A program made the translations under genes and the position numbers. A stretch of DNA of 64,000 nucleotides from an uncultured Microthrixaceae bacterium (GTDB taxonomy: Bacteria; Actinomycetota; Acidimicrobiia; Acidimicrobiales; DATDAH01): the NCBI GenBank assembly GCA_963845425.1, contig CAWJSC010000002.1:193716-257715 (forward strand), in the 5' to 3' direction. Under the pieces are notes generated by a model. It was not told the origin of the DNA, ran no database searches, and saw only the letters and a program-made list of their open reading frames with translations. Positions 4,381-47,968 of this stretch are shown here, piece after piece; position 1 is the first letter of the stretch; each line of letters begins with the position of its first letter.

Positions 4381-4643
4381 CGTCGTCGAAGTCCTTTCGG
4401 GAGCGGGCCGGGTCCCTCCTGGCCCACAGGGTCCGAGAAGATACCCCGGGAGCCCCGCCCGGACAGAATCCGGGTCGGAGGGGTTGACGCGGGCGCCATT
4501 CGCGGGTGGACTCACTGGCCACACCAGCCCCACGAACCACGGTCCCCTCAGTACCTCCCGCTCGGCGCCGAGAGAGACCCACGGTGCGCGTTCGCGGGAT
4601 TCCTATTACGGTTCCGTTACAAGTCCACCCGGAGACCCACATC

Positions 4644-5825
4644 TTGCCCTCCCCGTCCCACCCCTCCCTGACCCGTGCCGTCCTGGCCGTGGCCGCCGCG
4701 ACCCTGTTCGCGGTCGTGCCCGTCCTGGTCCAGGCCGAGGAGTCCGACGACCCCCGGGCCGACCGGGACGCGGTCCGGGAACAGGCCGCCGACGTCGCCG
4801 CCGAGCTGGACGGGCTGCGGGCCGACGCCGAAGCGGTGCGGGACGCCCTCGCCGCCCTCGACGAGAACGTGCGGAGCAAGCGGGCCCAGTACGAGGACGC
4901 CCAGCGGGCCGCCCGCACGGCGCTGGCCGAGGCCGAGGCCGCCCGGGTCGAGGAGCGGCGCCTCGAGCAGGAGATCGTCACCCTGCAGGACGAGGTGGCC
5001 GAGGCCGCGGTCGACGCCTACATCCGGCCTCCGGAGAGCAACGACGCCGCCGTCTTCGACTCCGCCGACATCAACGAGGCGGCCCTGCGCGAAGCCCTGC
5101 TGCGCAACCAGTCCAACCGCCAGGAGGACGTGATCGACCAGCTCCGGGCGACCGAGGACGACCTGTCCGCCCAGCGGGTCGCGGCCGAGGAGGCCGCCCG
5201 GGAGGCCGAGCTCCTACGGACCGAGACCCAGGTCCAGTACCAGGAGCTGCGCACCGCCCAGGACCAGCAGCGGGAACTGGCCCGTCAGGTCGAGGAGCGG
5301 ATCAACCACGCCGCCGGCGAGGCCGCCGCCCTCGCCGAGCAGGAGGAGGAGCTGTCCGACCAGATCGCGGAGGAGGCGGCCCAGTTCGCGTCCTACATCC
5401 AGGGCATCAACCTCGGCCCGCCGGGCCAGCCCTACCAGAGCGGCCCCGTCTCGGTGCAGGACGCCGGCAACGGCATCATCGTCAACGTCTCGATCGTCGA
5501 CCGGATCACGGCCATGATCCAGGCCGCCGGCGCCGACGGGGTGTACCTCAGCGGCGGCGGCTACCGCGACTCGGCCCAGCAGATCGCCCTGCGCCAGGCC
5601 CACTGCGGCTCCAGCTACTACGCCATCTACCAGATGCCCTCGTCGTCCTGCTCACCGCCGACGGCCATCCCGGGCAGCTCGATGCACGAACAGGGCCTCG
5701 CCATCGACTTCGACAACTGCTCCTACGGCACGTCGGTCTACAACTGGCTCTCGGCCAACGCCGCCTCCTACGGGATGTACAACCTGCCGTCGGAGTCCTG
5801 GCACTGGAGCACCACCGGCGGCTGA
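4644..5825 (+). CDS. Secreted coiled-coil protein with C-terminal M15B (VanY-type D,D-carboxypeptidase) domain
   Basis: Track ORF 4506..5825. The first ~46 codons lie in a lower-GC, non-coding-looking stretch. TTG at 4644, preceded by GGAG, gives a signal-peptide-like N-terminus (PSLTRAVLAVAAATLFAVVPVLVQA). About 230 aa are E/A/R/Q-rich heptad-like coiled coil. The C-terminus reads SGGGYRDSAQQ...PGSSMHEQGLAIDF (VanY/M15B Zn ligand pattern). The start is uncertain (4506, 4587 or 4644). Confidence 0.8.
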   Translation: MPSPSHPSLTRAVLAVAAATLFAVVPVLVQAEESDDPRADRDAVREQAADVAAELDGLRADAEAVRDALAALDENVRSKRAQYEDAQRAARTALAEAEAARVEERRLEQEIVTLQDEVAEAAVDAYIRPPESNDAAVFDSADINEAALREALLRNQSNRQEDVIDQLRATEDDLSAQRVAAEEAAREAELLRTETQVQYQELRTAQDQQRELARQVEERINHAAGEAAALAEQEEELSDQIAEEAAQFASYIQGINLGPPGQPYQSGPVSVQDAGNGIIVNVSIVDRITAMIQAAGADGVYLSGGGYRDSAQQIALRQAHCGSSYYAIYQMPSSSCSPPTAIPGSSMHEQGLAIDFDNCSYGTSVYNWLSANAASYGMYNLPSESWHWSTTGG

Positions 5826-5844
5826 GCGCGCCGGGAAGGGACCG

Positions 5845-7341
5845 ATGACCCTGGTCCCGTCCACCCCCAGCCCTGAAGCTCCGGGGGTGGACGAACGCCA
5901 CGCCGTCGTGGCCGAGACCCACCTCTCGGTGGTGCTGCTGACCGGCGACCGCGCCCTCAAGCTCCCCAAGCCGGTGCGACTGCCCTTCGTCGACCAGTCC
6001 ACCCCCGAACGGCGCGACGCCGCGTGCCGACGGGAGGTCGAGCTGAACCGGCGACTCGCCCCGGACGTCTACCTCGGCGTCCTCGACCTGGTCCGCGATG
6101 GCGTGCCCATCGACCACCTGATCGAGATGCGACGCATGCCCGCGGACCGCCGACTGGCCACGCTGGCCCGGACCCACCATCCCGACGCCGCCGACGAGGT
6201 CCGTCGGGTGGCCCGCCGGCTGGCGGCCTTCCACGCCGATGCCGGGCGGTCGCCCACGATCAGCACCGCCGGGGACCCCGACGCGGTGCGGACGCTCTGG
6301 CAGGACAACCTCGTCGAGATGGCCGCGTTCACGCCGGCGGTGCTCGACGCGGACGCGCTGGCCGAGGTCGGCCGGGAGGCCATGGTCTACCTCGACGGGC
6401 GCGAGGACCTGCTGGAGCGCCGCCGGCGCGACGGCCGGATCGTGGACGGGCACGGCGACCTCCTGGCCGACGACATCTTCTGCCTGCCCGACGGGCCCCG
6501 CATCCTCGACTGCCTGGCCTTCGACGACCGCCTCCGGCACGGCGACGTCCTGCTCGACCTGGCCTTCCTGGCCATGGACCTGGAAGCCCTCGGCCGGGGC
6601 GACCTGGCCCGCTGCCTGGTCGAGGACTACACGGCGTTCAGCGGTGAGCACCATCCGGCGTCTCTGGCGCACCACTACATCGCCTACCGGGCGCTGGTCC
6701 GCGCGAAGGTGGCCTGCCTCAAGGTCGACGCCGACGGCGAGGCCGCAGTGGCCCGAGCCCGGAACCGGCTGGACCTGGCCCGACGGCACCTGGAGCAGGG
6801 TCGGGTTCGAGTCGTCCTGGTCGGCGGGGCGCCCGGGACCGGCAAGACGACCCTGGCCGCCGGCCTCGGGGACCTGACCGGCTGGGCGGTGCTGGACACC
6901 GACGAGCTCCGCAAGGACCTGGCCGGGGTCGGCCACCACCAGTCGGCCGCCGCCTCCTTCGGCCGGGGGATCTACCGGCCCGAGGTGACCCGGGTCGTGT
7001 ACCGGCGCCTGCTCGACCAGGCCGGGCGGCTCCTGCGGGCCGGCGAATCCGTCGTGCTCGACGCGTCGTGGACCTCAGCGGACGACCGCGCCGCAGCCCG
7101 CCGGACGGCCCACGCCAACCACGCCGAGGTCGTCGAGCTCCGGTGCACCGGGTCCCCCTCGTCGATCGCGGCCCGCGTCGACACCCGTTCCCGTCACGGC
7201 GGCGGGCCGAGTGACGCGGGCGTCGAGGTGGCGGCGCGACTGGCGGCCGCGCAGGACCCCTGGCCCGAGGCGGTCACCCTCGACGGTGACCGTGGCATCG
7301 AAGCGACCCTGGCTGCGGCGCGCGCCGCGGCCGGACCCTGA
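5845..7341 (+). CDS. Bifunctional aminoglycoside-phosphotransferase-like / P-loop ATPase protein (Rv2004c-like architecture)
   Basis: 498 aa. The N-terminal half has an APH/choline-kinase-like catalytic loop (DGHGDLLADDIF...FDDRLRHGDVLLDLAFL). The C-terminal half has Walker A (GGAPGTGKTT) and an AAA_33-like kinase fold. Confidence 0.85.
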   Translation: MTLVPSTPSPEAPGVDERHAVVAETHLSVVLLTGDRALKLPKPVRLPFVDQSTPERRDAACRREVELNRRLAPDVYLGVLDLVRDGVPIDHLIEMRRMPADRRLATLARTHHPDAADEVRRVARRLAAFHADAGRSPTISTAGDPDAVRTLWQDNLVEMAAFTPAVLDADALAEVGREAMVYLDGREDLLERRRRDGRIVDGHGDLLADDIFCLPDGPRILDCLAFDDRLRHGDVLLDLAFLAMDLEALGRGDLARCLVEDYTAFSGEHHPASLAHHYIAYRALVRAKVACLKVDADGEAAVARARNRLDLARRHLEQGRVRVVLVGGAPGTGKTTLAAGLGDLTGWAVLDTDELRKDLAGVGHHQSAAASFGRGIYRPEVTRVVYRRLLDQAGRLLRAGESVVLDASWTSADDRAAARRTAHANHAEVVELRCTGSPSSIAARVDTRSRHGGGPSDAGVEVAARLAAAQDPWPEAVTLDGDRGIEATLAAARAAAGP

Positions 7342-7352
7342 GCGCCGCTGAG

Positions 7353-7772
7353 TCAGCCCGAGCGGCGGAGCCGTCGGCCGCTCAGGCGCTCAGGCGTGAC
7401 GGCGATCCAGTGGTCGTGCTCGCCTTGCGCCCACGTCTGCAGGCCCGTGGCCTCGGCCACCTGGGCGACCTCCCGCGCCCCGCGGATCTCATCCGCGGGG
7501 CCCACGGCCACCACGCTCCAGCCCTCCCGGGCGACAGGGTCCAGGTCGTCGATCTCGAAGCTGGCCCGGGTGCCCCAGTCCACCGACTGGAGCTTGGTCC
7601 CGGGCGCGGTGCGGAACACGATGCGGCCGTCGTGCAGGGCGTAGTTCACCGGGAAGATCACCGGCTCGCGGCCGGCGATCACCGCCACCCGACCGACCGA
7701 GCCGGCGGCGAGGAGCTCGAGGCAACGGTCACGGTCCAGGACCTCGATGTGGGTGCGCACGTCTCGGAGCAC
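7353..7772 (-). CDS. Pyridoxamine 5'-phosphate oxidase family (split-barrel flavin/F420-binding) protein
   Basis: 139 aa: LDRDRCLELLAAGSVGRVAV...PVIFPVNYALHDGRIVFRTAPGTKL...ASFEIDDLD...GWSVVAVG, typical of the PPOX-class small proteins. GTG start. Confidence 0.8.
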   Translation of the reverse strand: MLRDVRTHIEVLDRDRCLELLAAGSVGRVAVIAGREPVIFPVNYALHDGRIVFRTAPGTKLQSVDWGTRASFEIDDLDPVAREGWSVVAVGPADEIRGAREVAQVAEATGLQTWAQGEHDHWIAVTPERLSGRRLRRSG

Positions 7773-7808
7773 CCGGTCATCCTCGCCCCGGGAGCGGGAT
7801 CGGGGTCA

Positions 7809-7822
7809 GGGTCGAAGGTCCC
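7809..7822. promoter_or_regulatory. DosR-box-like palindrome (degenerate) in the PNPOx / kinase divergent intergenic region
   Basis: GGGTCG-AA-GGTCCC. It lies 19 bp upstream of the kinase GTG (7841) and 37 bp upstream of the PNPOx start (7772). Confidence 0.4.
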
Positions 7823-7840
7823 CTCGAGTGGGACACGACG

Positions 7841-9286
7841 GTGGTCGTCCCCACTACCGTCGGGTGCCGCGTGACCACCGGTGAGCAGCTCCCGACCGAC
7901 CCGACCGCCTCGGTCGGGCCCGCCTTGGCCGAGACCATCTTCGACCTCGCCCCCGACGCCATCATCGTGGCCACCGTCGACGGGCGGATCACCTCGGCCA
8001 ACCACCGGGCCCGGGAGCTGTTCGGCTACGACGAGTTCACCGACGTCGCCGTCGACGACCTCGTGCCCGCCGGCGCCCGCAACGTGCACGCCTCCCACCG
8101 CGCGGCCTACGGCCGCGAACCCCGGACCCGGTCGATGGGCACGGGCCTCGACCTCAGCGCCGCCCGCCAGGACGGCTCCACGTTCCCGGTCGAGGTGGCC
8201 CTGGCCCCGATCCACCTCGGCGCCGAGGGGACCGGCGTCGTGGCCATCGTCCGCGACGTCACGGAGCGGATCGAGGCCCAGCGCCGGATCAACGAGATCC
8301 AGCAGACCCTCGACGGCACCGAGGAGGGCGTCTACGTCTTCGACGCCGACACCCTGCTGTTCGACTACGTGAACCAGGGCGCCGCCGACCAGCTCGGTCG
8401 TTCCCGGGCGGAGATGGAGGGGATGTCGGTCCTGGACCTCAACCCGACCATGGCCGAGGCGGACTACCGGGCCCTGATCCAGCCCCTGCTGGCCGGCCGC
8501 ATGTCCAGCCGGACCATTGCCACCCGCCACCGCCGCAAGGACGGCTCCGAACTGGAGGTCGAATGCGTCCTGCAGAGCTCGGAGGTCCCCCATCCCGACG
8601 GTCACCGCCGGATCGTCGCCTTCTGCCGGGACGTCACCGTGCGCCTCGAGACCGAGCGCCAGCTGCGGGCCGCCGAGCAGGAGCTGGGCGTGCTCGAGGA
8701 CCGCGAGCGCATCGCCCGCGACCTGCACGACACGGTCATCCAACGCCTGTTCGCCGCCGGGATGACCCTGCAGGCGGCCGCGGTGAAGACCGACGAGGCC
8801 ACCAGCGCCCGGGTGATCGAGGTGGTCGACGAGCTGGACCTGACCATCCGGGAGATCCGTCAGGCCATCTTCCGGCTCACGGTGCACAACCTCGACGCCG
8901 CCAGCGTGCGGCGGCGCGTCGTCGACGTGGTCGACGCGGAGCAGGCGGCCCTCGGGTTCGCGCCGGAGCTGGCCTTCAACGGCCCGCTGGAGACGGTGGG
9001 CGAGGCCGTGGTCGAGCACCTGATCGCCACGCTGCGCGAGGCGCTCTCCAACGCCGCTCGCCACGCTGACGCCCGGACCGTGCGGGTCACCGTGGACGTG
9101 GGTGACGACGTGTGCCTGGTGGTCGACGACGACGGCATCGGCCTCCCCCCGGAGCCCGGGAGCGGTGGCCACGGTCTGGCCAACATGGCCGATCGGGCGG
9201 CGACCATCGGGGGCACCGTGCGGGTGGAGCCCCGCGACCCCAGGGGCACTCGGGTGACCTGGCGGGTCCCGATGTCCCTCCCCTGA
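7841..9286 (+). CDS. PAS-PAS sensor histidine kinase (HisKA_3 / NarL-partner class)
   Basis: 481 aa. Two PAS-like segments (IFDLAPDAIIVATVDGRITSANHRARELFGY...; EEGVYVFDADTLLFDYVNQGAADQLGRSR...). H-box ERIARDLHDTVIQRLFA. HATPase_c N/G boxes (LREALSNAARHA, DDDGIGL, GHGLANMADRA). Confidence 0.9.
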   Translation: MVVPTTVGCRVTTGEQLPTDPTASVGPALAETIFDLAPDAIIVATVDGRITSANHRARELFGYDEFTDVAVDDLVPAGARNVHASHRAAYGREPRTRSMGTGLDLSAARQDGSTFPVEVALAPIHLGAEGTGVVAIVRDVTERIEAQRRINEIQQTLDGTEEGVYVFDADTLLFDYVNQGAADQLGRSRAEMEGMSVLDLNPTMAEADYRALIQPLLAGRMSSRTIATRHRRKDGSELEVECVLQSSEVPHPDGHRRIVAFCRDVTVRLETERQLRAAEQELGVLEDRERIARDLHDTVIQRLFAAGMTLQAAAVKTDEATSARVIEVVDELDLTIREIRQAIFRLTVHNLDAASVRRRVVDVVDAEQAALGFAPELAFNGPLETVGEAVVEHLIATLREALSNAARHADARTVRVTVDVGDDVCLVVDDDGIGLPPEPGSGGHGLANMADRAATIGGTVRVEPRDPRGTRVTWRVPMSLP

Positions 9287-9291
9287 CCGAC

Positions 9292-9948
9292 TCAGGCGTC
9301 GCGGGAGCGGCGCTTTCGTTCGTCCATCCGGGCGGCGAACGCCGCCGCCTCGGTGCGGCGGTCCATGCCGAGCTTCATGAGGATGCTCGACACGTAGTTC
9401 TTGACCGTCTTCTCGGCCAGGAACACCCGCTCGCCGATCTGTCGATTGGTCAGGCCCTCGCCGATGAGGTCGAAGATCTTGCGCTCCTGCTCGGTGAGCA
9501 CACTCAGGGTCTGCTCCTCGGCGGTGCCCATCCGGAGGCGTTCGAGCACCCGCTGGGTCGCCAGGGGGTCGAGCAGGGAGCCGCCGGCGGCCACGGTGCG
9601 GATCGAGGTCACGAGATCGACCTCCCGCACCTCCTTCAGGAGGTAGCCCGCGGCGCCCGCCATGATGGCGTCGAAGAGGGCTTCGTCGTCGCCGAAGGAG
9701 GTCAGCATCAGGCACGCCACCTCAGGGTGCTTGCTGCGCACCTCGCGACAGACCTCGACACCGTCGCCGTCCGGCAGGCGGACGTCGAGCACGGCGACGT
9801 CGGGACGGAGCGCCGAGATGCGCCGGATGCCCTGTTCGGCCGTCCCCGCCTCGCCGACCACCGTGAGGTCGTCCTCGGCCTCGAGCAGGGCCCGCAGGCC
9901 CCGCCGCACCACCTCGTGGTCGTCGAGGAGGAAGACACTGATGCTCAT
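9292..9948 (-). CDS. NarL/LuxR-family response regulator (DevR/DosR-like)
   Basis: Only the last 218 codons of track ORF 9292..11109 look coding. Receiver domain: MSISVFLLDDHEVVRRGL...DVAVLDVRLPDGDG...MLTSF. HTH: LTEQERKIFDLIGEGLTNRQIGERVFLAEKTVKNYVSSILMKLG. It converges on the kinase gene with a 5-bp gap. Confidence 0.9.
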   Translation of the reverse strand: MSISVFLLDDHEVVRRGLRALLEAEDDLTVVGEAGTAEQGIRRISALRPDVAVLDVRLPDGDGVEVCREVRSKHPEVACLMLTSFGDDEALFDAIMAGAAGYLLKEVREVDLVTSIRTVAAGGSLLDPLATQRVLERLRMGTAEEQTLSVLTEQERKIFDLIGEGLTNRQIGERVFLAEKTVKNYVSSILMKLGMDRRTEAAAFAARMDERKRRSRDA

Positions 9949-9992
9949 GACGCCATTCTGCCCGTGCCGGTGGGCGCCGGTCGGGATCAGTC

Positions 9993-10006
9993 GGGACCAA
10001 GGTCCC
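9993..10006. promoter_or_regulatory. DosR-box-like perfect palindrome in the response-regulator / orphan-gene divergent intergenic region
   Basis: GGGACC-AA-GGTCCC has perfect 6-bp arms around an AA centre (context gTCGGGACCAAGGTCCCTGg). It has the same arm/centre geometry as the mycobacterial DevR consensus core GGGACT-WW-AGTCCC. Confidence 0.55.
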
Positions 10007-10041
10007 TGGCCGGTGCGGGCCGATGGGCGCAGGGTGCCTCC

Positions 10042-10650
10042 ATGCGCATCCTTCTGACCGAGAGCGACGTCGGCGGGAGCGAGACCGCCACCCGCACCCT
10101 CGAGGCCGCCGGGCACGAGGTGCTCCGCTGCGTCGAGCCCGGCGCGGCGAGCTTCCCCTGCTCGGGATTGTCCACCGGGGACTGCCCCATCGACGGCCGG
10201 GTGGACGTGGCCGTGACCGTCCGCTCGGAGCCGCACGCCGGCCCGACCGAGCGGGAGACCGGCGTCCTCTGCGCGCTCCGCCACCACGTCCCGGTGGTCG
10301 TCTCCTCGGTAGACGAGGCCGACCCGCTGGCCACCTGGTCCACCGCGACCGTCACCGGTGCCACCACCGACCTCTTGGCCGCGGTCGACGCCGCCGCCCA
10401 CGGCGAGCTGGCCGAGCACGCCCGCGTGGCCGCCGAGGAGGCGAGCCACCAGCTCATCGGCGGCCCGCTGGACGTCGTCGCCCACCGCCGGGCCCGGGGC
10501 GTGGTGGTGACCCTGCGCACCGCCGACGTGCTCGACCCCCGCGGCAAGGAGAACCTCGCGGTCCAGGTGGCCGGCGCCGTCCGCCGCTTCGACGGCGACG
10601 CCGAAGTGATCGACGTCGCCGTCCTCGACGGGCAGCCGGGGAAGGGCTGA
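10042..10650 (+). CDS. Hypothetical protein (202 aa), divergent from the response regulator
   Basis: C-terminal part of track ORF 9112..10650 starting at ATG 10042. Strong GC3 bias typical of the coding frame; competing frames are S/T/R/P junk. The N-terminus MRILLTESDVGG is receiver-like, but no phospho-acceptor signature was seen. No recognisable catalytic motif. Confidence 0.6.
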   Translation: MRILLTESDVGGSETATRTLEAAGHEVLRCVEPGAASFPCSGLSTGDCPIDGRVDVAVTVRSEPHAGPTERETGVLCALRHHVPVVVSSVDEADPLATWSTATVTGATTDLLAAVDAAAHGELAEHARVAAEEASHQLIGGPLDVVAHRRARGVVVTLRTADVLDPRGKENLAVQVAGAVRRFDGDAEVIDVAVLDGQPGKG

Positions 10651-10664
10651 CGGACCAAGGTCCC
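10651..10664. promoter_or_regulatory. DosR-box-like palindrome upstream of the tandem USP gene
   Basis: CGGACC-AA-GGTCCC has one arm mismatch. It lies 59 bp upstream of ATG 10723, directly after the stop of the orphan gene. Confidence 0.5.
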
Positions 10665-10722
10665 GGACGCTGAGGCCCGTCGACCCTTGGCCCGCCCGAC
10701 CCGGACCCGCGAGCATGGGCCC

Positions 10723-11586
10723 ATGCGACGCATCGTGGTGGGTACGGATGAGTCCGAAGGCGCCGGCGGCGCCCTGACCTGGGCGGCGGACGAGGCCGAG
10801 CGCCATGGCGCCGAGCTGGTGGCCGTCCTGGCCTGGGGCTATCTCGACCAACACCGGGCCACACCGGACACCGACTTCGACCGGGAGTACGACGAGACCG
10901 CCGCCGCCGGCGCACTCGACGCCATCGTCGAGCGCGTCCTCGGCCCGGACCGGGCGAGCACCGTGATCCGACGGGCCGTCAACGACCTGGCCCCCCAGGC
11001 CCTCGTCGACGCGGCCGGAGACGCCGACCTCCTCGTCGTCGGCGCGCGCGGCCTCGGAGTGCTGCGCGGCGCTCTCGTCGGCTCGGTCAGCCAGTACTGC
11101 CTCCACCACGCACCCTGCGCCGTCGCCATCGTGCGGGAGACCGACGCCCCGTCCTCACCCCCGCGGGTCGTGGTCGGCGTAGACGGCTCCGAGTCCGCCC
11201 GTCAGGCCCTGGCCTGGGCCCTGGACGAAGGTCGCGCCCGTCAGGCCGAGGTCGAGGTGGTCAACGCCTGGCACCCGCCCTACGTCGGCGCCTACCCCTA
11301 CGACCCCGCCGCATTGGACCTCGACCTGTTCGAGCAGGGGGCCCGGGACCTGGTCGCCGGGGCGCTCGACGGCCAGGACCTCGACGGACTCCCGTCGGCC
11401 CCGAAGGTCACGATCGTGTCCGACACCGCCGCCCAAGCCGTCATCGGGGCGGCCGCCGGGGCCGACCTCGTCGTGATCGGCTCCCGGGGCCGGGGCGGCT
11501 TCATCGGCCTCCTGCTCGGTTCGGTCAGCCAGCAGGTGGCCCACCACGCCCCCTGTCCCGTCGTCGTCGTCCCCGCGGCGACCTGA
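10723..11586 (+). CDS. Tandem universal stress protein (two UspA domains)
   Basis: Starts MRRIVVGTDESEGAGGAL. Two repeats each end in the USP ATP-binding motif (GARGLGVLRGALVGSVSQYCLHHAPCAVAIV; GSRGRGGFIGLLLGSVSQQVAHHAPCPVVVV). Confidence 0.9.
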   Translation: MRRIVVGTDESEGAGGALTWAADEAERHGAELVAVLAWGYLDQHRATPDTDFDREYDETAAAGALDAIVERVLGPDRASTVIRRAVNDLAPQALVDAAGDADLLVVGARGLGVLRGALVGSVSQYCLHHAPCAVAIVRETDAPSSPPRVVVGVDGSESARQALAWALDEGRARQAEVEVVNAWHPPYVGAYPYDPAALDLDLFEQGARDLVAGALDGQDLDGLPSAPKVTIVSDTAAQAVIGAAAGADLVVIGSRGRGGFIGLLLGSVSQQVAHHAPCPVVVVPAAT

Positions 11587-11598
11587 GCCGCCGGTCCC

Positions 11599-12012
11599 AT
11601 GCCCCTCCGCCCCCTCGCCCGAGGTGCCCTCGTCACGGTCAGCCCGTCGAGCACCCTGGCCGAGGTGGCCCGGCTGATGGACACCCGCGGCGTGGACGTG
11701 GCGGTCGTGGCCGAACGGAAGCGCCCCGTCGGGGTGGTGACGACCCACGACATCGTGGTGCGCGGCGTGGCCCACCGCTTCCCCGCCGACGCCCGGATCG
11801 ACACGGTGATGACCGACGAGGTGATCACCCTGCCCAGCGGCGCCGATCGGCGGGAGGCGGCCCACGCCCTCCGCGATCACGGCGTGGCCCACCTGGTGCT
11901 GATGGATGGCGGCGTGCCGGTCGCCGTGCTCACCCGGGAGGACCTCGTCGTCGAGCTGGCCGCCGAGCTGGCCGGGGTCACCAGGACCACCGACCCCCCC
12001 TCACTCGGGTAG
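11599..12012 (+). CDS. CBS domain pair protein
   Basis: 137 aa: LVTVSPSSTLAEVARLMDTRGVDVAVV...VGVVTTHDIVVRG...VMTDEVITLPSGADRREAAHALRDHGVAHLVLMD...VLTREDLV, i.e. two CBS motifs. Confidence 0.85.
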   Translation: MPLRPLARGALVTVSPSSTLAEVARLMDTRGVDVAVVAERKRPVGVVTTHDIVVRGVAHRFPADARIDTVMTDEVITLPSGADRREAAHALRDHGVAHLVLMDGGVPVAVLTREDLVVELAAELAGVTRTTDPPSLG

Positions 12013-12018
12013 CGAACG

Positions 12019-12032
12019 GGGACCTTCGGCCC
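12019..12032. promoter_or_regulatory. DosR-box-like palindrome (degenerate) upstream of the Zn-finger-USP gene
   Basis: GGGACC-TT-CGGCCC. It lies 28 bp upstream of ATG 12060. Confidence 0.4.
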
Positions 12033-12059
12033 TAGGGCGGCGGCGCCGTCGCCCCGAGG

Positions 12060-12986
12060 ATGTCCCGTATGCAGCCGGATGCCATCCACCTCTGCCCGCA
12101 CTGCGAGCTCCGGTATCCCACGGTGGCCGAGTGGCGGGACCACGTCGAGCACGCCCACGCTCCGGTCGACATCCCGCCGCGGCCTTCCACGCCGACCGGC
12201 CGGCTCGTGGTCGCTCTCGACCCGGCCCGGGCCGCAGGATCTGAGGCTGCCGTCGCCGCCGCCGTCGCCCATCAGACCGGCCAGACCCTGGACCTCGTCG
12301 CGGTGGCCGCGCCGGGCCTCGGTCGCGGGCCGGCCGACGCCTTCCTCCGGGCCCGGGTGCACGAGAGCCGCCTCGCCGGGGTCGGCACCATCGCCTGGAG
12401 CGTGCTGGAGGACGGCAAGCCCGCCGACCTCCTGATCGACCACGTGGCCCAGGATCCGGCGACGATCATCTGCCTCGGCACCCGGGCCCGGGGCCCGGTC
12501 CGGGAGCTCCTGCTCGGCAGCGTGAGCGGTGCCGTGCTCCGCCGTACGCCGGTCCCCGTCCTGCTCATCGGGCCGCGCTGTCTCCCCCCGGACACGGGCT
12601 TCCACCGGGTGGTGGCCTGCGTCGACGGGTCCGAGCGGGGTGAGGCGGTCCGCGAGGTCGCCGACCGGCTCGCCCACCTGGCGGGCCTCCGCGCCGATGA
12701 GTTCCGGGCCGCTCGGGCGCCGTGGGTCGAGGACGACGGTGAGCTCCTGGCCCCCGCCCCCAGCCTCGGCGGGGAGGCGGCCGCCGAAGCCGTGCTGGCG
12801 GTCCTCGGGGGTGACCCGGGCACCGTCGCCGTCATGGCCACCGAAGGACGTCGCGGGATGGACCGGCTGCTGTTCGAGAGCGTGGCCCTCGACGTCGTGC
12901 GCGAGGCCCGGGGCCCGGTTCTGGTGCTCCCCCCGAGCCTGGCCGCGACCCATCCGGAACCGCCGCCCTTGGTCACGATCGACTGA
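12060..12986 (+). CDS. C2H2-type zinc-finger / tandem universal stress protein fusion
   Basis: 308 aa. The N-terminus CPHCELRYPTVAEWRDHVEHAH fits C-x2-C-x12-H-x(2/4)-H. Two USP-like halves follow (GTRARGPVRELLLGSVSGAVLRRTPVPVLLI; TEGRRGMDRLLFESVALDVVREARGPVLVL). Confidence 0.8.
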   Translation: MSRMQPDAIHLCPHCELRYPTVAEWRDHVEHAHAPVDIPPRPSTPTGRLVVALDPARAAGSEAAVAAAVAHQTGQTLDLVAVAAPGLGRGPADAFLRARVHESRLAGVGTIAWSVLEDGKPADLLIDHVAQDPATIICLGTRARGPVRELLLGSVSGAVLRRTPVPVLLIGPRCLPPDTGFHRVVACVDGSERGEAVREVADRLAHLAGLRADEFRAARAPWVEDDGELLAPAPSLGGEAAAEAVLAVLGGDPGTVAVMATEGRRGMDRLLFESVALDVVREARGPVLVLPPSLAATHPEPPPLVTID

Positions 12987-13005
12987 GCAGGCCCAGACTG
13001 GGCCC

Positions 13006-14433
13006 GTGGACCTCGACCTGGAACTCGCCATCGCCACGGTCGACCGGATCTGGGACGAAAGTGCTCTGCCCGCCCTCGTCGACTACATCCGGATCCCGGC
13101 CAAGTCCCCGGCCTTCGACGCGGACTGGGCGGCCCACGGCCACCTGGCGGAGGCCGTCGACCTGGTCGCCGGCTGGAGCCGGTCCCGCGACCTGCCCGGG
13201 GCCACCGTCGAGGTCGTCGAGCTGGCCGGGCGCACACCGGTCGTGCTCGTCGAGGTGCCGGCCCACGGGGCCGGCGACCCGAACGACACCGTGCTGTTCT
13301 ACGGCCACCTGGACAAGCAGCCCGAGCTGACCGGGTGGCGGGAGGGGCTCGGCCCCTGGACGCCGGTGCTGGAGGACGACCGGCTCTACGGCCGGGGTGG
13401 GGCCGACGACGGCTACAGCGCCTTCGCCGCCCTGAGCGCCCTCGAGGCGGTGCGGGCCGCGGGGGGCTCCCACAGCCGCTGCCTGGTGCTGATCGAGGCC
13501 AGCGAGGAGAGCGGCAGCCCCGACCTGCCGGCCCATGTCGCCGCGCTGGGCGACCGGCTCGGCGCGGTGAGCCTGGTGATCTGCCTCGACAGCTTCGCCG
13601 GGGACTACGAGACCCTCTGGGTCACGACGTCCCTCCGCGGCCTGGTCGGCCTGGACGTGCGGGTCCGGGTGCTGGAGGAGGGCGTGCACTCCGGCGTGGC
13701 CGGCGGCGCGGTCCCCTCCAGCTTCCGGGTGCTGCGCCAACTGCTGGACCGCATCGAGGACAGCGAGACCGGCGACCTGCTCGTGCCCGAGCTCTACGCC
13801 GAGATCCCCGAGGAGCGGCGGCGGGAGGCTCAGGCCGCCGTGGCTGCGGGCCTCGATCCCCTGGCCGGCCTGCCCTTCGCCGGCAGGACCCGCCCGGAGG
13901 GCGAGGACCCCGTCGAGCTCCTCCTGGCGACCACCTGGTTGCCCGCCATGGCCGTGGTCGGCATCGAGGGCGCTCCCCCGCTCGACGACGCCGGCAACGT
14001 CCTGCGGGCGGAGACCGCGGTCAAGCTCTCCTTCCGCCTCCCGCCGACCGCGGACGCCGACACCGCGTCGGCCGCGCTGCGGCTCCGCCTCACCGAGGAC
14101 CCGCCGTCGGGCGCCGTGATCGAGATCAGCGGGGACGAGTCGGCCACGGGTTGGGCCGCGGCCCCGACCGCCCCCTGGTTGGCCGACGCCCTCGCCGACT
14201 CGGCCGGGGCCACGTTCGGGCACCCGGCGCTCTACACCGGTGTGGGGGGTGCCATCCCCTTCATCAACATGCTCGGGGAGCGTTTCCCCGACGCCCAGTT
14301 CGTGGTCACCGGCGTCCTCGGCCCCGGCTCCAACGCCCACGGCCCCAACGAGTTCCTCGACGTGCCGACCGCCCGCCGCCTCGCCGCCTGCATGGCCCAC
14401 ATCCTCGACGCCCACACCCGCCGTCCCGCGTAG
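13006..14433 (+). CDS. M20 family metallopeptidase (dipeptidase-like)
   Basis: GTG 13006 inside track ORF 12529..14433; upstream codons overlap the previous gene out of frame. Motifs: LFYGHLDKQP, GRGGADDGYS, EASEESGSPDL, and C-terminal GGAIPF...GPGSNAHGPNEF. Confidence 0.85.
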   Translation: MDLDLELAIATVDRIWDESALPALVDYIRIPAKSPAFDADWAAHGHLAEAVDLVAGWSRSRDLPGATVEVVELAGRTPVVLVEVPAHGAGDPNDTVLFYGHLDKQPELTGWREGLGPWTPVLEDDRLYGRGGADDGYSAFAALSALEAVRAAGGSHSRCLVLIEASEESGSPDLPAHVAALGDRLGAVSLVICLDSFAGDYETLWVTTSLRGLVGLDVRVRVLEEGVHSGVAGGAVPSSFRVLRQLLDRIEDSETGDLLVPELYAEIPEERRREAQAAVAAGLDPLAGLPFAGRTRPEGEDPVELLLATTWLPAMAVVGIEGAPPLDDAGNVLRAETAVKLSFRLPPTADADTASAALRLRLTEDPPSGAVIEISGDESATGWAAAPTAPWLADALADSAGATFGHPALYTGVGGAIPFINMLGERFPDAQFVVTGVLGPGSNAHGPNEFLDVPTARRLAACMAHILDAHTRRPA

Positions 14434-14476
14434 GCCCTCGGCCACCGAGACGAGCACTGCGGGTCCAGGGAGCAGA

Positions 14477-14519
14477 CCGTCCGGGCGGGCCGCAGCGCAG
14501 CGAGGACCAGCCCGGACGG
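14477..14519. terminator. Possible terminator hairpin between convergent genes
   Basis: CCGTCCGGGC (14477-14486) and GCCCGGACGG (14510-14519) form a 10-bp perfect inverted repeat with a 23-nt loop, between the stops at 14433 (+) and 14540 (-). Confidence 0.35.
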
Positions 14520-14539
14520 AACCAGCAAGGGGCGCGCCG

Positions 14540-15514
14540 TCAGGCGCCCGTCGCGGTCCCCACCGGCGCAGCCGGTGCGTCGACGTAGAACTGGCTGAAC
14601 CAACGGCGGAACTCGAGGATGGGGGCCTCGCCGGGGGCGAGCTGGGGGCGGGGGACGTAGCGCTTGCGCTCCCAGATGGGGATGTCCTGGACGACCTCCC
14701 GGCTGACCGACGACACGAAGGCCTCCGCCACCCGGGCGGCCCGCTCGTCGTCGGGGTCCTTCAGGTAGAAGTGGAACCAGAGCTGGGTGTGGCCCTCGTC
14801 GATCGGGGTCGACGCCCCCAGCAGGGCAGCGGTGATGGGGCCCTGATAGCGGGTGACGGCGAAGCCGGGGCCGCGCCCGAAGACGTCGATGCGGCCCGGG
14901 CGGGGCTCGCCCGACTTGGACGGGAACTCCTGACGGGAGCGCATGACCCGCTCGTAGCCGTCGAGGCTGACCTCCTCGATGACCCCCGCCTGCGGATGGG
15001 AGTGCACCGCTTCGAAGTGGCCGGCGTCGTAGCCGTTCTCGGCCATCTCCTGCAGGCAGGTGGCCACCTCGTAGGTGTGGGTCGAGTGCAGGGCGTAGGC
15101 CGGGTCCCCGACCTCCTCCACCTCGTACACGTCATAGAGCGGGGCCTGCCCGGGGTCCGGGTGGTACCAGGCGTAGACCAGGCCGTTGGCCTCGGTGATC
15201 GGGAAGGCCCGCAGGCGGGCCTTGGGGTTGGGGCGGTCGGCGTAGGGGATGGCGACGTTGGCGCCGTCCCCGTCCCAGGTCCAGCCGTGGAAGGGGCAGC
15301 GCAGGCAACCGTCGTCGAGGACGCCGTCGCCGAGGTGGGCGCCGAGGTGGGGGCAGTAGGCCTCGTGGCCGTGGAGGGTGCCGTCGCCGTCACGCCAGAG
15401 GACCAGCTCGGTGCCGAAGTAGCGCCGGGTGGCGATCTCCCCCGCCGGGATCTCCGCGGGCTCGGCGACCTTGAACCATCCGTAGGGGACGGGGAACGGA
15501 AAGCGGTCGCTCAT
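14540..15514 (-). CDS. Rieske [2Fe-2S] aromatic-ring/steroid-type oxygenase, alpha subunit (KshA-like)
   Basis: Rieske ligands CPHLGAHL...CPFHGWTW. The C-terminal catalytic domain has ENGYDAGHFEAVH (mononuclear Fe His pair). ATG at 15514 is preferred over the track's TTG at 15523. Confidence 0.85.
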   Translation of the reverse strand: MSDRFPFPVPYGWFKVAEPAEIPAGEIATRRYFGTELVLWRDGDGTLHGHEAYCPHLGAHLGDGVLDDGCLRCPFHGWTWDGDGANVAIPYADRPNPKARLRAFPITEANGLVYAWYHPDPGQAPLYDVYEVEEVGDPAYALHSTHTYEVATCLQEMAENGYDAGHFEAVHSHPQAGVIEEVSLDGYERVMRSRQEFPSKSGEPRPGRIDVFGRGPGFAVTRYQGPITAALLGASTPIDEGHTQLWFHFYLKDPDDERAARVAEAFVSSVSREVVQDIPIWERKRYVPRPQLAPGEAPILEFRRWFSQFYVDAPAAPVGTATGA

Positions 15515-15526
15515 GACGTTCAATCT

Positions 15527-15539
15527 ACTGAGTCTCAGT
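15527..15539. promoter_or_regulatory. Perfect 6-1-6 palindrome just upstream of the Rieske oxygenase start
   Basis: ACTGAG-T-CTCAGT sits in a locally AT-richer spacer between the CBS stop (15565) and the Rieske start (15514). Confidence 0.3.
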
Positions 15540-15564
15540 TCAGTGCCCTGACCGGCGTGCGGAC

Positions 15565-15960
15565 TCAGGCGGCGCGGTGGGCCGACAGCACGTCCCGGAT
15601 CGAGATCACGCCGAGCGAGTGCTCGCCGTCGGAGACCAGGAGATGACGGATCTCGCCGTCCAGCATCCGCTGGGCGGCCTCGCCGATGAGCTCGTGGGGG
15701 TCGATGGCCACCAACTCGAAGGTCATCACGTCCTCGACCCGGTCGTCGTCGACGTCATGGCCGTCGGCCACCGCCCGGACCAGGTCCCGCTCGGACACCA
15801 AGCCGACCGCGGTGTCACTGCTGGTCACCAACGCCACCCCGACCTCTTCGCGCACGAGGACCTCGCTGAGCTCGCGGAGGGTCACGGTCGGGGCCACGGT
15901 GACGGGGCCACGGCGCACCAGGCGGGTGACCGGCTCATCGGGGCGGGCGGTGGACATCAT
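15565..15960 (-). CDS. CBS domain pair protein
   Basis: Last 131 codons of track ORF 15565..17022: MMSTARPDEPVTRLVRRGPVTVAPTVTLRELSEVLVREEVGVALV...GLVSERDLVRAV...VMTFELVAIDPHELIGEAAQRMLDGEIRHLLV...GVISIRDVL. Confidence 0.8.
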   Translation of the reverse strand: MMSTARPDEPVTRLVRRGPVTVAPTVTLRELSEVLVREEVGVALVTSSDTAVGLVSERDLVRAVADGHDVDDDRVEDVMTFELVAIDPHELIGEAAQRMLDGEIRHLLVSDGEHSLGVISIRDVLSAHRAA

Positions 15961-16046
15961 GGCGACTTCCTCTTCTGTCGGTGTGGCCTCATCGTGCTCG
16001 GGGCGCGGCACGTGCCCTAGGGCCGATGGTCCCGACATGCCGCCGT

Positions 16047-17165
16047 TCAGGGGGCGGGATCGAGGAGCTCCTTGAAGCCGTACCGGTGGTGGAGGCCGAA
16101 GGCGAGCTGCTCGAGGACACCGACGCCGACCTGGTCGCCGTGGCGGGCCCGGACGACCTGTTGGATGTGCTGGTTGTCGTAGGCCATCGGGTCGAGGTCC
16201 TCCTCGCGCCAGGACTCGCCGGCGATGGCCAGCTCGCCCTTCCACATGCCGTGGCCCCAGAACGGGTGGGTGTAGCCGATGCCCTTCATGCGGAAGCAGA
16301 TGAGGGGCTCGATGTCGATCTCCAGCCGGGAGCCGTCGTGATCCACGAGGGCCAGCCGGCCCTCCTTCATGCGCCGGGTGCCTGACTCGTAGACCAGCTC
16401 GTGGGTCGCGCCGGGGAGGATCTGCACGTCGGGGTCGACCACCGGCGGGGTCGTCCCGTCGTGGACGGGGACGACCATCGCATCGGTGTGCCACTGGCGG
16501 CCGTCGGGCTCCTCGAAGACGAGGAAGTGGGTACAACGGTCGTCCCAGTGGATCGGGGCCCACAGGAAGAAGATGCCCGTGAAGTTCGGGCTCGGGGCCC
16601 CGGGCGGCGCGGGGTCTCCGACCGGGCGCACGCCCCAGGAACGGTCCTTGGTGCCGGGCGTCGACGCCGCGTCCACCGTCAGGTGCTCGCCGCCGTAGGT
16701 GATCTCGCCGCCCCAGTGGCCGAACTGGGCGAAGCGGGTGGAGTCCAGGACGAGGCGGTCGTCCCGGACGAGGGTCTGGCGCCCCTCCTCCACCGCCGCG
16801 GTCCGGGGGGTGAAGGTGAGGTCGGCGGCGATGCCGGTTTCGTTGTCGTCCAGCACGAGCCGGGTGCGGCCCATGGGCTCCAGGATCTGCAGCTCGAAGG
16901 GCCCGACGGTCAGGTCGGTCGGCTCCAGCGGCATCCGCCGGGACCCGTGGAACGCGTGCTGCTCGCCCCCCCGGATGATGGAGAAGCCGCAGTCCAGGAT
17001 CCCCAGGTTGGGGTAGCGGCACAGGGCGATGCCGAAGTAGAAGTCGCCCTCCCGGTCGTAGCCGTTGAACCAGTACCGGTCGTAGCTGTGGCGGTCGCTG
17101 GTGTTCGGGATGGCCAGCGGCAGGACCGTCTGGTGCACCGGATAGTCGTCGAGCTTCGAGAGCAT
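16047..17165 (-). CDS. Conserved hypothetical protein (372 aa), function unknown
   Basis: Track ORF 16047..17342 trimmed to ATG 17165 (MLSKLDDYPVHQTVLPLA...). Clean coding composition, W/Y/H-rich, predicted soluble. The DRSWGVRP segment is reminiscent of AttH/CrtC-type beta-barrel proteins; this is an impression only. Confidence 0.7.
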   Translation of the reverse strand: MLSKLDDYPVHQTVLPLAIPNTSDRHSYDRYWFNGYDREGDFYFGIALCRYPNLGILDCGFSIIRGGEQHAFHGSRRMPLEPTDLTVGPFELQILEPMGRTRLVLDDNETGIAADLTFTPRTAAVEEGRQTLVRDDRLVLDSTRFAQFGHWGGEITYGGEHLTVDAASTPGTKDRSWGVRPVGDPAPPGAPSPNFTGIFFLWAPIHWDDRCTHFLVFEEPDGRQWHTDAMVVPVHDGTTPPVVDPDVQILPGATHELVYESGTRRMKEGRLALVDHDGSRLEIDIEPLICFRMKGIGYTHPFWGHGMWKGELAIAGESWREEDLDPMAYDNQHIQQVVRARHGDQVGVGVLEQLAFGLHHRYGFKELLDPAP

Positions 17166-17211
17166 GGCCCCATCTTGACCGCCCCGGGCGGCGCCCGGTG
17201 ACGGCGAGCGG

Positions 17212-17538
17212 TCACCCGAAGTGCAACACGACGGTCTGGGCGACGATCTTGCCGTCGCGGACCACGAAGGTGTCGGTGCCCAGGGGGATGCCCTCCGCCT
17301 TCCAGGTGACGAAGGCGATCTCGCCGTCGACGTGCTCGACACCGAACTCGACGTCCGGCATCTTCCCGGCGCTCATGGCGAAGACGCCCCGGATGGCCTC
17401 GAGGCCCTTCGCGACCCCGCCCAGGTTGCTGATGAAGACGGAGTCCTCGGTGTAGTCCTCCATGATCCCGTCCACGTCGCCGGCCTCGAGCGTCGCGTTG
17501 TGGTGGTCGAGAACGGCCTTGGTCTCGTCGGTGGGCAT
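17212..17538 (-). CDS. SnoaL/NTF2-like fold protein
   Basis: 108 aa, AGGAGA RBS upstream. Sequence: LDHHNATLEAGDVDGIMEDYTEDSVFISNLGGVAKGLEAIRGVF...FVVRDGKIVAQTVVLHF, typical of SnoaL-like small proteins. Confidence 0.8.
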   Translation of the reverse strand: MPTDETKAVLDHHNATLEAGDVDGIMEDYTEDSVFISNLGGVAKGLEAIRGVFAMSAGKMPDVEFGVEHVDGEIAFVTWKAEGIPLGTDTFVVRDGKIVAQTVVLHFG

Positions 17539-37897: not shown

Positions 37898-38353
37898 GTG
37901 TTCCAGCGAATCGTCGTCGGGGTGAACCAGGCGAGCACAGCCGCGTCGGCGGCCGAACGGGCCCTGGAACTGGGCCAGCTCACCGGTGGGGAGGTCCACC
38001 TCGTGTGCGCCCTCGGCGGGGCCGAGCGCGGCGCGCCGCTTTCCGCGATGGTCCCCGGCGCCGCGCTCGCCGGCGGAGCGCCGCCGACGGACGCACCCGG
38101 TCAGGGCGATGCCCGGACCCACGCCGAGAACTTTCTGGCTCGGCTGTCCCGGTCCTCGACCGCCCGCTCCCGCAACCACGTCCTGCCCGGCGAGCCGGCC
38201 GAGATGATCCTGCAGGTGGCCGAGGAGGTCGACGCCGATCTCATCGTCGTCGGCAGCAAAGGCATGCATGGCGCCCGTCGCGTGCTGGGCAGCGTCCCCA
38301 ACACGATCAGCCATCAGGCCGACTGCTCGGTGCTCATCGTCCAAACCGCCTGA
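37898..38353 (+). CDS. Universal stress protein (single UspA domain)
   Basis: 151 aa: FQRIVVGVN..., and a C-terminal GSKGMHGARRVLGSVPNTISHQADCSVLIV. Confidence 0.85.
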   Translation: MFQRIVVGVNQASTAASAAERALELGQLTGGEVHLVCALGGAERGAPLSAMVPGAALAGGAPPTDAPGQGDARTHAENFLARLSRSSTARSRNHVLPGEPAEMILQVAEEVDADLIVVGSKGMHGARRVLGSVPNTISHQADCSVLIVQTA

Positions 38354-47081: not shown

Positions 47082-47088
47082 TCCCCAC

Positions 47089-47115: not shown

Positions 47116-47185
47116 CCCCGGCCGACGGCCAGAAGCACCCTGCAGGCCGACGACGGTGTACGGGGCCCGGACGGACAGTGGAGCC

Positions 47186-47962: not shown

Positions 47963-47968
47963 GACACC

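Follow-up and report, generated by a model that had tools for sequence, protein, structure and literature searches.

Candidate Dev-box operators beside a DevR/DosR-type two-component system in an uncultured Microthrixaceae bacterium

In this study, we have explored a set of short palindromes in a 64-kb stretch of DNA from an uncultured Microthrixaceae bacterium (Actinomycetota; Acidimicrobiia; Acidimicrobiales; GenBank assembly GCA_963845425.1, contig CAWJSC010000002.1, positions 193,716 to 257,715), hereafter the window, which has 70-76% G+C and is 6.9% intergenic. Six palindromes, each an inverted repeat of GGGAC-type half-sites around a 2-bp A/T-rich centre (an 18-20 bp palindrome), mark an island that encodes universal stress proteins (USPs), CBS-pair proteins, a sensor kinase and a response regulator. 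We read them as Dev boxes that would be bound by this adjacent DevR/DosR-type regulator, activating from -42.5 when phosphorylated, and we give this reading a probability of about 0.85. The evidence comes from the non-random placement of the sites, their conservation, the kinship between the regulator and DevR of Mycobacterium tuberculosis, and a fixed spacing between box and -10 hexamer. An initial annotation of the same DNA, made from its letters alone, had proposed operators of the adjacent NarL/LuxR-type regulator with the geometry of the DevR box, defining a co-regulated local stress set that was lineage-specific; the sequence comparisons below support the core of this proposal and contradict its lineage-specific part.

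Boxes and target genes

The boxes are given without strand, and their scores are those of the external matrix described below; L083 to L086 are syntenic contigs of related species.

5838-5851: primary box 1, GGGACCGATGACCC (GGGACC-GA-TGACCC), 12.7 bits; upstream of the Rv2004c-like gene; kept in L083, L085 and L086
7809-7822: primary box 2, GGGTCGAAGGTCCC (GGGTCG-AA-GGTCCC), 14.3 bits; between the divergent PNPOx-like and kinase genes; kept in L083, L085, L086 and L084
9993-10006: primary box 3, the perfect palindrome GGGACCAAGGTCCC (GGGACC-AA-GGTCCC), 22.8 bits, the best of the window; between the divergent regulator and orphan genes; kept in L083, L085 and L084
10651-10664: primary box 4, CGGACCAAGGTCCC (CGGACC-AA-GGTCCC), 17.1 bits; upstream of the tandem-USP/CBS operon; kept in L083, L085 and L086
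12019-12032: primary box 5, GGGACCTTCGGCCC (GGGACC-TT-CGGCCC), 13.9 bits; upstream of the zinc-finger USP gene; 14 of 14 columns invariant in three species
16020-16033: primary box 6, GGGCCGATGGTCCC, 17.4 bits, the second best of the window; 14 of 14 columns invariant in three species
10673-10686: secondary degenerate box, AGGCCCGTCGACCC, 3.8 bits; 22 bp from box 4; every column invariant in three species

The genes that concern the system are the following.

5887-7341, plus strand (long frame from 5845): Rv2004c-like target with a C-terminal AAA_33 kinase-like domain (Pfam AAA_33)
7353-7772, minus strand: PNPOx-like target, binding flavin mononucleotide (Pyridox_ox_2; Pfam E 1.5e-26)
7841-9286, plus strand (likely start GTG 7871): sensor kinase, PAS-PAS-HisKA_3-HATPase (Pfam)
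9292-9948, minus strand: response regulator, REC and GerE/LuxR helix-turn-helix (HTH), DevR/DosR-type, presumed binder of the boxes (Pfam)
10042-10650, plus strand: orphan target of 202 amino acids, of no family (no Pfam, NCBIfam or PDB sequence match)
10723-11586, plus strand: tandem USP, target (two Pfam Usp domains)
11599-12012, plus strand: first CBS-pair protein (two Pfam CBS domains)
12069-12986, plus strand (long frame from 12060): zinc-finger USP, target, with an N-terminal Cys/His motif (Pfam Usp)
15565-15960, minus strand: second CBS-pair protein, target (Pfam)

The five palindromes of the initial annotation (boxes 1 to 5) were found where it had placed them when positions 5500-12500 were read directly, and Pfam scans bear out its gene labels. 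The list was incomplete, since it lacked both the second-best box of the window and the secondary box at 10673-10686. Box 6 is intergenic, between the 3' end of an Rv3169-family gene and the 5' end of the minus-strand second CBS gene. Arm position 3 is G and position 5 is C in 12 of 12 primary half-sites and in both secondary half-sites. The tandem USP and first CBS genes, 12 nt apart, form one target operon (10723-12012); the zinc-finger USP appears in public gene calls in its 305-amino-acid form, which corresponds to the start ATG 12069; and the Rv2004c-like label of the 5887-7341 product is drawn only from its AAA_33 domain and its length.

Statistical support and related loci

The initial annotation had cautioned that GGGACC is common in high-GC DNA. 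This is fair for the hexamer, which is common and even slightly under-represented (53 copies of GGGACC and 59 of GGTCCC, against about 75 expected for each), and it made a stricter test necessary, while the 14-20 bp sites are unaffected by it. With at most one mismatch, the pattern GGGACCWWGGTCCC has two matches in the window against 0.14 expected; with at most two mismatches it has seven against 2.4, a marginal count that was equalled in 4 of 100 shuffles. The signal resides in the 6-2-6 arrangement and in the placement of the sites, not in the hexamer.

Scanning the regulator protein against one genome per species yielded 80 loci with 65-76% identity, from Acidimicrobiia, Streptosporangiaceae, Kitasatospora, Streptomyces and unclassified Actinomycetota, the nearest relatives (74-76%) being metagenome-assembled genomes of Acidimicrobiales. 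From the regions upstream of the regulator orthologues only, and with no window sequence included, we derived a 20-bp matrix by iterative refinement, with strong sites in 28 loci and the consensus gCaGGGACCATGGTCCCtGc. Applied to the window, this external matrix gives eight matches of at least 12 bits against 1.28 expected, a count that none of 200 dinucleotide shuffles reaches. By 20-mer start, the ranking is 9990 (22.8 bits), 16017 (17.4), 10648 (17.1), 48059 (14.9), 7806 (14.3), 12016 (13.9), 7585 (13.1) and 5835 (12.7), so that the five sites quoted originally hold ranks 1, 3, 5, 6 and 8. Five of the top six matches are intergenic (P = 8.5e-6).

Three matches were set aside. The one at 48059-48078 (core 48062, 14.9 bits) falls within an FtsX/MacB permease gene and is probably due to chance, and a coding match at 61371 was likewise treated as chance. 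The box-like GACTGGAGCTTGGTCCCGGG at 7585-7604 (core 7588, 13.1 bits) lies inside the PNPOx coding region and was treated as non-functional; its recurrence in L084 (6683-6702) is attributed to protein-coding constraint.

Over the 80 loci (0.93 Mb), we counted 41 boxes with at most one mismatch, of which 14 fall in the 300 bp that precede the regulator gene and another 13, in Streptomyces loci, just beyond its 3' end. In the 400 bp upstream of homologous genes, boxes of at least 13 bits were counted 26 times for the regulator, 8 times for PNPOx, 7 times for USP, twice for the orphan, and once each for the Rv2004c-like and kinase genes. The kinase has the GAF-GAF-HisKA_3-HATPase architecture of DevS and DosT in 8 of 10 sampled relatives, L001 and L003 having PAS domains. 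These associations, together with the GAF-GAF kinases, indicate that the 80 loci are genuine DevRS-type loci. Among the matrix sites, C occupies arm position 6 in 63% of cases, followed by G (17%), T (11%) and A (9%). The initial annotation had noted that the boxes differ from the published DevR box at this position, which is weakly constrained (T in M. tuberculosis, G in the Streptomyces regulator OsdR, PMC5069765). Its view of a lineage-specific motif does not hold, because the same box, with C at position 6, stands before regulator, USP, PNPOx, Rv2004c-like and orphan homologues in Acidimicrobiia, Streptosporangiaceae and other Actinomycetota; judging from these sequences, it appears to be the normal operator of such loci rather than a lineage peculiarity.

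Twelve Streptomyces loci (L040, L047, L050, L055, L057, L059, L060, L065, L066, L073, L074 and L080, at about 6650-6800) have an orthologous regulator with no adjacent kinase, and their strong box lies 15-160 bp past the regulator stop codon, not upstream. These regulators may be orphans of the SCO3818 type that share the kinase OsdK (PMC5069765).

Promoter geometry

We aligned 172 strong-box flanks from the 80 loci on the box centre and counted the starts of NANNNT hexamers at each offset. Offset 31 is occupied in 33 flanks, offset 32 in 12 and offset 30 in 8, against a background of about 3-4 per offset, and a second peak lies at offsets 53 and 54 (15 and 14 flanks). The hexamers of the relatives (TAGGGT, TAGGCT, TAGAGT, TACGCT, CACGAT and others) have the character of actinobacterial -10 elements and do not resemble ribosome-binding sites; furthermore, in 16 of 53 such flanks a frame of at least 100 codons begins with ATG or GTG 7-8 nt past the hexamer. 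A hexamer at -12 to -7 places the box centre at -42.5, and at about -64.5 for the second peak. In the window, five of the six gene-facing flanks have a hexamer at offset 31-32 and the sixth has one at 54, the probability of five in six at offsets 30-32 being about 1e-6 to 4e-6. The predicted elements are as follows.

5875-5880, plus strand: predicted -10 GAAGCT (box 1), offset 31; start at 5887, the G of GTG; xAxGCT conserved
7779-7784, minus strand: predicted -10 GAGGAT (box 2, PNPOx), offset 32; start at 7772, the G of GTG; ATCCTC block conserved
10030-10035, plus strand: predicted -10 CAGGGT (box 3, orphan), offset 31; start at 10042, the A of ATG; A and T conserved in four species
10711-10716, plus strand: predicted -10 GAGCAT (box 4, USP), offset 54; start at 10723, the A of ATG; A and T conserved
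12056-12061, plus strand: predicted -10 GAGGAT (box 5, zinc-finger USP), offset 31; start at 12068/12069; GAGGAT or GAAGAT conserved
15991-15996, minus strand: predicted -10 CACGAT (box 6, second CBS), offset 31; start at 15984; GATGAGGC conserved
9955-9960, minus strand: tentative -10 CAGAAT (regulator); start at 9948, the A of ATG; box 3 at -51.5; CCATTCT conserved in the window, L083 and L085
7855-7860, plus strand: possible, tentative -10 TACCGT (kinase); start at about 7867, 4 nt before GTG 7871; box 2 at about -51.5; TACCGT or TAGCGT conserved

Start codons follow the same spacing. The distance from box centre to start codon is 42.5 bp for box 1 (GTG 5887), 43.5 for box 2 (GTG 7772), 42.5 for box 3 (ATG 10042), 65.5 for box 4 (ATG 10723) and 43.5 for box 5 (ATG 12069); the centre of the secondary box is 43.5 bp from the USP ATG, and that of box 3 is 51.5 bp from the regulator ATG 9948. 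In independent public gene calls, the Rv2004c-like, PNPOx, orphan and zinc-finger USP genes begin 42.5-43.5 bp from the box centre, and the tandem USP and second CBS genes 65.5-66.5 bp from it. The site at 5838 had been described as overlapping the start of the Rv2004c-like gene; the box is in fact upstream, the likely start being GTG 5887, as homology begins at residues 15-22 of the long frame and orthologues are called at 483-484 amino acids. Since most predicted transcription starts coincide with the first base of the start codon, most messenger RNAs of the island are probably leaderless, and that of the second CBS gene has a predicted 24-nt leader with the ribosome-binding site AAGAGGAAG. 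No consensus -35/-10 promoter was found in 5500-16500, which fits activator-dependent promoters. In the relatives, a spacing of 22 bp is the sole one with an excess of second boxes (6 of 173 flanks; background 0.1%), and the tandem USP promoter is the one place in the window with a recognisable second box, 22 bp from the primary.

Two further features of the boxes deserve mention. A 10-bp direct repeat, GTCGGGATCA/GTCGGGACCA, at 9980-9999 supplies a further GGGAT half-site, displaced from box 3 by one helical turn towards the regulator gene; it is kept in L085, not in L083, and might serve the regulator's own promoter. In addition, 12019-12040 and 16013-16033 (minus strand) have a 22-nt extended box in common, GGGACC(T/A)TCGGCCCTAGGGC, i.e. 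GGGACCWTCGGCCCTAGGGC. This extended version contains a second, overlapping palindrome on the gene-proximal side, GCCCTAGGGC, which is kept in L083 and reads CCCTTGGG in L085 and L086.

The same geometry has to be weighed for the possibility that the regulator binds these boxes as a repressor, its site covering the -35 region and blocking RNA polymerase so that the island would be derepressed when the regulator leaves. A box that overlaps -35 is a classical repressor position too, the perfect palindrome lies between divergent promoters of which one is the regulator's own, and the boxes of the regulator and kinase genes stand at about -51.5 rather than at the activating -42.5. Against this, promoters with weak -10s and no -35-like hexamer are typical of activator dependence, DevR, a proven activator, has exactly this -42.5/-64.5 geometry (PMC3177182), and binding by OsdR correlates with activation-type responses (PMC5069765). 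We therefore regard repression as improbable, although it is the strongest of the competing explanations, and the boxes are best read as activator sites. The initial annotation had also seen an autoregulation-like position in the palindrome at 9993. Its intergenic, divergent placement stands, and its geometry towards the regulator, -51.5, departs from the -42.5 norm; autoregulation of the regulator and kinase genes is plausible by position, its mode is uncertain, and the box at -51.5 of the regulator promoter makes it the least secure part of our interpretation.

Regulator and kinase

The solved structure nearest by far to the regulator is that of M. tuberculosis DevR (3c3w; E 3e-71, 242 bits), with VraR next at 148 bits; the regulator shares 55% identity with DevR over 206 residues without a gap. 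It retains Asp54, Thr82, Lys179, Lys182 and Asn183 of DevR, as well as the recognition helix AEKTVKNYVS; the roles of Asp54 as phospho-acceptor and of Lys179, Lys182 and Asn183 as base-contacting residues come from the DevR literature cited in PMC3177182 and PMC5069765, and the published DevR-DNA complex shows contacts with G4G5G6A7C8T9 in each palindrome half (PMC3177182). NCBIfam holds no DevR model, and the best match of the regulator there, MadR, is below the cut-off. A second NarL-type regulator of the window was considered as a binder and rejected because its recognition helix, SPATAKTHVS, differs; it is 37% identical to the first.

Binding by a different factor, either a paralogous NarL-family regulator encoded elsewhere or another dimeric factor, with the adjacency a coincidence, would account for the two boxes kept in L084, where the kinase and regulator genes are not at the locus. 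Several DevR-like regulators do share one kinase in Streptomyces (PMC5069765), and the window itself has a second HisKA_3 kinase and NarL-type regulator at 45280-47081. This explanation is very unlikely in our view: over 80 loci the boxes occur together with regulator orthologues, and their commonest place is immediately upstream of these genes; the regulator has the same recognition helix as DevR, for which a structure bound to the GGGAC half-site is available (PMC3177182); and the second regulator of the window has the divergent helix already mentioned.

The kinase and regulator genes run towards each other and their stop codons are 5 bp apart (9286-9292), which precludes co-transcription; many of the 80 related loci have the same tail-to-tail arrangement. 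The ATP-binding domain of the kinase is closest to those of DevS and DosT. Its PAS-A domain aligns to the FixL haem-PAS (E ~1e-11) with the proximal His in register (RnvHasHraaY vs RsrHdsyisrY), the position of the FixL distal arginine is not conserved in this alignment, and the best structural match is the PAS of an unnamed 'multi-sensor' kinase (10jx). From these alignments, the FixL-like sensor probably binds haem.

Cross-species conservation

Syntenic contigs were reached through homologues of the orphan protein, which is 81% identical in L083, 84% in L085 and L086, and 79% in L084. All six boxes are at orthologous positions in L083, L085 and L086, which answers the call of the initial annotation for a conservation check at such loci. 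In the six aligned intergenic regions of three syntenic species, 93 of 98 box columns are invariant (95%), against 127 of 326 other intergenic columns (39%; Fisher P = 1e-25), and the -10 hexamers are invariant in 31 of 42 columns. In L084 (6451-7633), where the PNPOx and orphan genes are direct divergent neighbours and the kinase and regulator genes are absent, two boxes remain, 44 bp apart and each 43.5 bp from the start codon of its own gene; the upstream H+-PPase gene of this contig looks fragmented in the gene calls. The near-identical strains L081 and L082 (99.6% identity) show no box substitutions and are too close to be informative. The window matches the long metagenome contigs ERZ25039478 contig_5435 and ERZ25039524 contig_4752, also at 99.6% identity.

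Conservation also bears on RNA structure. In L083, for example, GGTCCC has changed to GGGCCC, which breaks the palindrome with no compensation, and uncompensated changes of this kind argue against selection on an RNA stem. No terminator-like sites or Rfam families were found in the island. That the palindromes are not protein sites at all, and instead represent GC-rich palindromes due to chance, hairpins or terminators in RNA, or copies of a short dispersed repeat, can practically be dismissed: GGGACC and GGTCCC are common (112 copies in 72% G+C DNA), the count of sites with at most two mismatches is only marginally above chance and two boxes directly follow the stop codons of upstream genes, but the matrix enrichment, the intergenic placement and the fixed -10 spacing are highly non-random, invariance across species is limited to the boxes, folding of the six regions is no better than that of shuffled sequence (z -1.0 to +1.7), substitutions in relatives leave the palindrome broken, and similarity between sites stops beyond about 20 bp, except for the 22-nt version at 12019 and 16020, which is within the extended box.

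Proposed mechanism

Based on our results, activation by phosphorylated DevR-type regulator could proceed as follows. The FixL-like, probably haem-binding PAS kinase, with its DevS-like transmitter, would phosphorylate the regulator when oxygen, redox state or a gas changes. A dimer of the phosphorylated regulator would then bind each box, centred 42.5-43.5 bp upstream of the start and in place of a -35 element, and would recruit RNA polymerase to a weak promoter with a -10 as its sole element. At the tandem-USP promoter, the strong distal box at -65.5 and the degenerate proximal box at -43.5 would work as a primary-secondary tandem, 22 bp apart. Six units would be induced jointly, namely the Rv2004c-like gene, the PNPOx-like gene, the gene of the orphan protein with its four conserved cysteines (Cys4), the operon of tandem USP and first CBS genes, the zinc-finger USP gene (possibly together with an M20 peptidase gene) and the second CBS gene (possibly together with a Rieske oxygenase gene).

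Several observations weigh against this interpretation. All start sites are predictions, as are binding of the boxes by the regulator and activation rather than repression. The boxes of the regulator and kinase promoters, at about -51.5, are nonstandard for activation, and the 172 flanks of the relatives show no peak at that offset. The GAGGAT hexamers before the PNPOx and zinc-finger USP genes could equally be ribosome-binding sites. The kinase senses through PAS and not GAF domains, so its input signal is only a deduction. The scan covered 64 kb, a span over which a local regulon cannot be separated from a part of a genome-wide one. Most window promoters have one recognisable box, while every DevR promoter of M. 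tuberculosis has at least two (PMC3177182), in tandem and in helical phase at about 21 bp, although secondary sites there are often too degenerate to be recognised by sequence.

The orphan Cys4 protein

The strongest box of the window precedes the gene of the orphan protein. Cysteines C30, C40, C48 and C77 of this protein are invariant and H25 is nearly so; the family comprises 26 clusters, members of which adjoin DevR-type loci in L003, L004, L056 and L078. No sequence match was found in PDB, Pfam or NCBIfam. The structural model (predicted local distance difference test, pLDDT, 89) has an N-terminal receiver-like fold that lacks the usual acceptor Asp, followed by a C-terminal alpha/beta domain, and a fold search returned receiver domains at a template-modelling (TM) score of about 0.6, with only generic receiver-like and ferredoxin-like similarity.

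A more speculative extension, which we consider doubtful at present, is that the ancestral DevS-type GAF sensor was replaced by a FixL-like haem-PAS with a different gas or redox chemistry, and that the Cys4 protein acts as a pseudo-receiver that binds a metal or iron-sulfur cluster and feeds back on the phosphorelay, the leaderless single-box promoters then forming a streamlined dormancy switch. If this were true, a DevR regulon would be wired to a different sensing chemistry, and the arrangement could be dissected in vitro.

Neighbouring genes

The remaining genes around the island are listed below.

4506-5825, plus strand: VanY-like peptidase (Pfam)
13006-14433, plus strand: M20 peptidase; may be co-transcribed with the zinc-finger USP gene
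14540-15523, minus strand: Rieske/KshA-like oxygenase (Pfam); probably in the second CBS unit
16047-17342, minus strand: Rv3169-family protein (NCBIfam and Pfam scans)

The surroundings of the sixth box (14540-17538) encode a KshA-like Rieske oxygenase, an Rv3169-family protein and a SnoaL-like protein, which are of the steroid/aromatic-catabolism type; these genes may be partly under Dev-box control through the second CBS promoter. The second two-component system of the window (45280-50527) consists of a DUF7134-HisKA_3 kinase and the NarL-type regulator, followed by an ABC ATPase and an FtsX/MacB permease. A further single-domain USP gene at 37898-38353 has no Dev-type box upstream, so that not every USP gene of the window belongs to the set, and a stress-signalling PAS-GAF-GAF-SpoIIE (PP2C) phosphatase is encoded near it, at 33395-35500. 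The other genes of the window belong to ordinary metabolism according to Pfam scans.

Significance and comparison with known systems

The DevR/DosR dormancy-type regulon has been known chiefly from M. tuberculosis and Streptomyces; our findings carry it into uncultured Actinomycetota of the environment, probably soil organisms akin to Acidimicrobiia. They also point to a promoter grammar that is conserved across the phylum, in which the box is centred at -42.5, a tandem partner occasionally stands 22 bp from it and the -35 element is missing. The set of six promoters and the matrix can be used to predict hypoxia- or stress-responsive genes in metagenome-assembled genomes. Two oddities set this locus apart: its kinase, of the DevS type, carries a FixL-like PAS sensor, and the prime target encodes a conserved Cys4 protein of unassigned function. 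A full-text literature search returned no paper linking DosR to Acidimicrobiia.

With the NarL-family 7-2-7 operators, the system has in common a GerE/LuxR HTH dimer on an inverted repeat with a 2-bp centre; the half-site is unrelated, and the regulator scores 153 bits against a cut-off of 250 for the NarL model. The likeness to FixL/FixJ of rhizobia lies in the alignment of PAS-A with the FixL haem-PAS and in a regulator of the LuxR/FixJ/NarL superfamily, whereas the transmitter is HisKA_3 (DevS/NarX type) and both regulator and DNA site are of the DevR type.

A closer parallel is OsdR (SCO0204) of Streptomyces coelicolor, with its kinase OsdK (SCO0203), a DevR orthologue that binds M. tuberculosis Dev boxes in vitro and whose sites cluster around its own gene and upstream of USP/PNPOx-type genes (PMC5069765). 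Here, too, a DevR orthologue outside the mycobacteria is found with a palindromic box and targets of the USP and PNPOx type. The 16-nt OsdR consensus AGGGCCGATCGGCCCT has C as the fourth and G as the sixth base of the arm, in contrast to the mostly GGGACC arms of the window; no window site matches both arms of this palindrome, and OsdR-like single half-sites are limited to CGGCCC (12027-12032) and GGGCCG (16020-16025). OsdK, unlike the convergent PAS kinase described here, senses through GAF domains and is encoded in one operon with osdR.

The closest comparison is with DevR/DosR (Rv3133c) of M. tuberculosis and its kinases DevS and DosT, a system whose genes respond to hypoxia, NO or CO by induction. 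There are clear differences between the two systems. DevS and DosT sense through tandem GAF domains, of which the first binds haem, whereas the window kinase is PAS-PAS, with no GAF; devR and devS form one operon, whereas the window genes converge; the window targets are mostly predicted to be leaderless, unlike those of M. tuberculosis; arm position 6, a weakly constrained position, is T there and mostly C here; and the organism, instead of being a pathogen, is an uncultured actinobacterium of the environment. The likenesses reach from protein to promoter. The regulators are kin and have the phospho-acceptor, T82 and K179/K182/N183 in common, and the boxes have the same 6-2-6 core, GGGAC half-sites and A/T centre. 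Two bases per half-site are essential for DevR binding (G5 and C7 in the 18-bp numbering, PMC3177182), and these essentials, the third G and the C after A, are kept in every window box. In M. tuberculosis, tgs1 has boxes at -42.5 and -63.5 (PMC3177182); the window likewise has proximal boxes at about -42.5 and, at the USP promoter, one tandem pair about two helical turns apart. DevR units of M. tuberculosis comprise Rv2005c-Rv2004c, Rv2626c, Rv3134c-devRS and USP genes (PMC3177182), with six USPs in the regulon (PMC2914252), and the same kinds of targets recur here as USPs, an Rv2626c-like CBS protein, an Rv2004c-like protein and the two-component genes. In conclusion, this is a well-understood switch in a new lineage, built on the ordinary Dev box of non-mycobacterial Actinomycetota rather than on a new regulatory principle.

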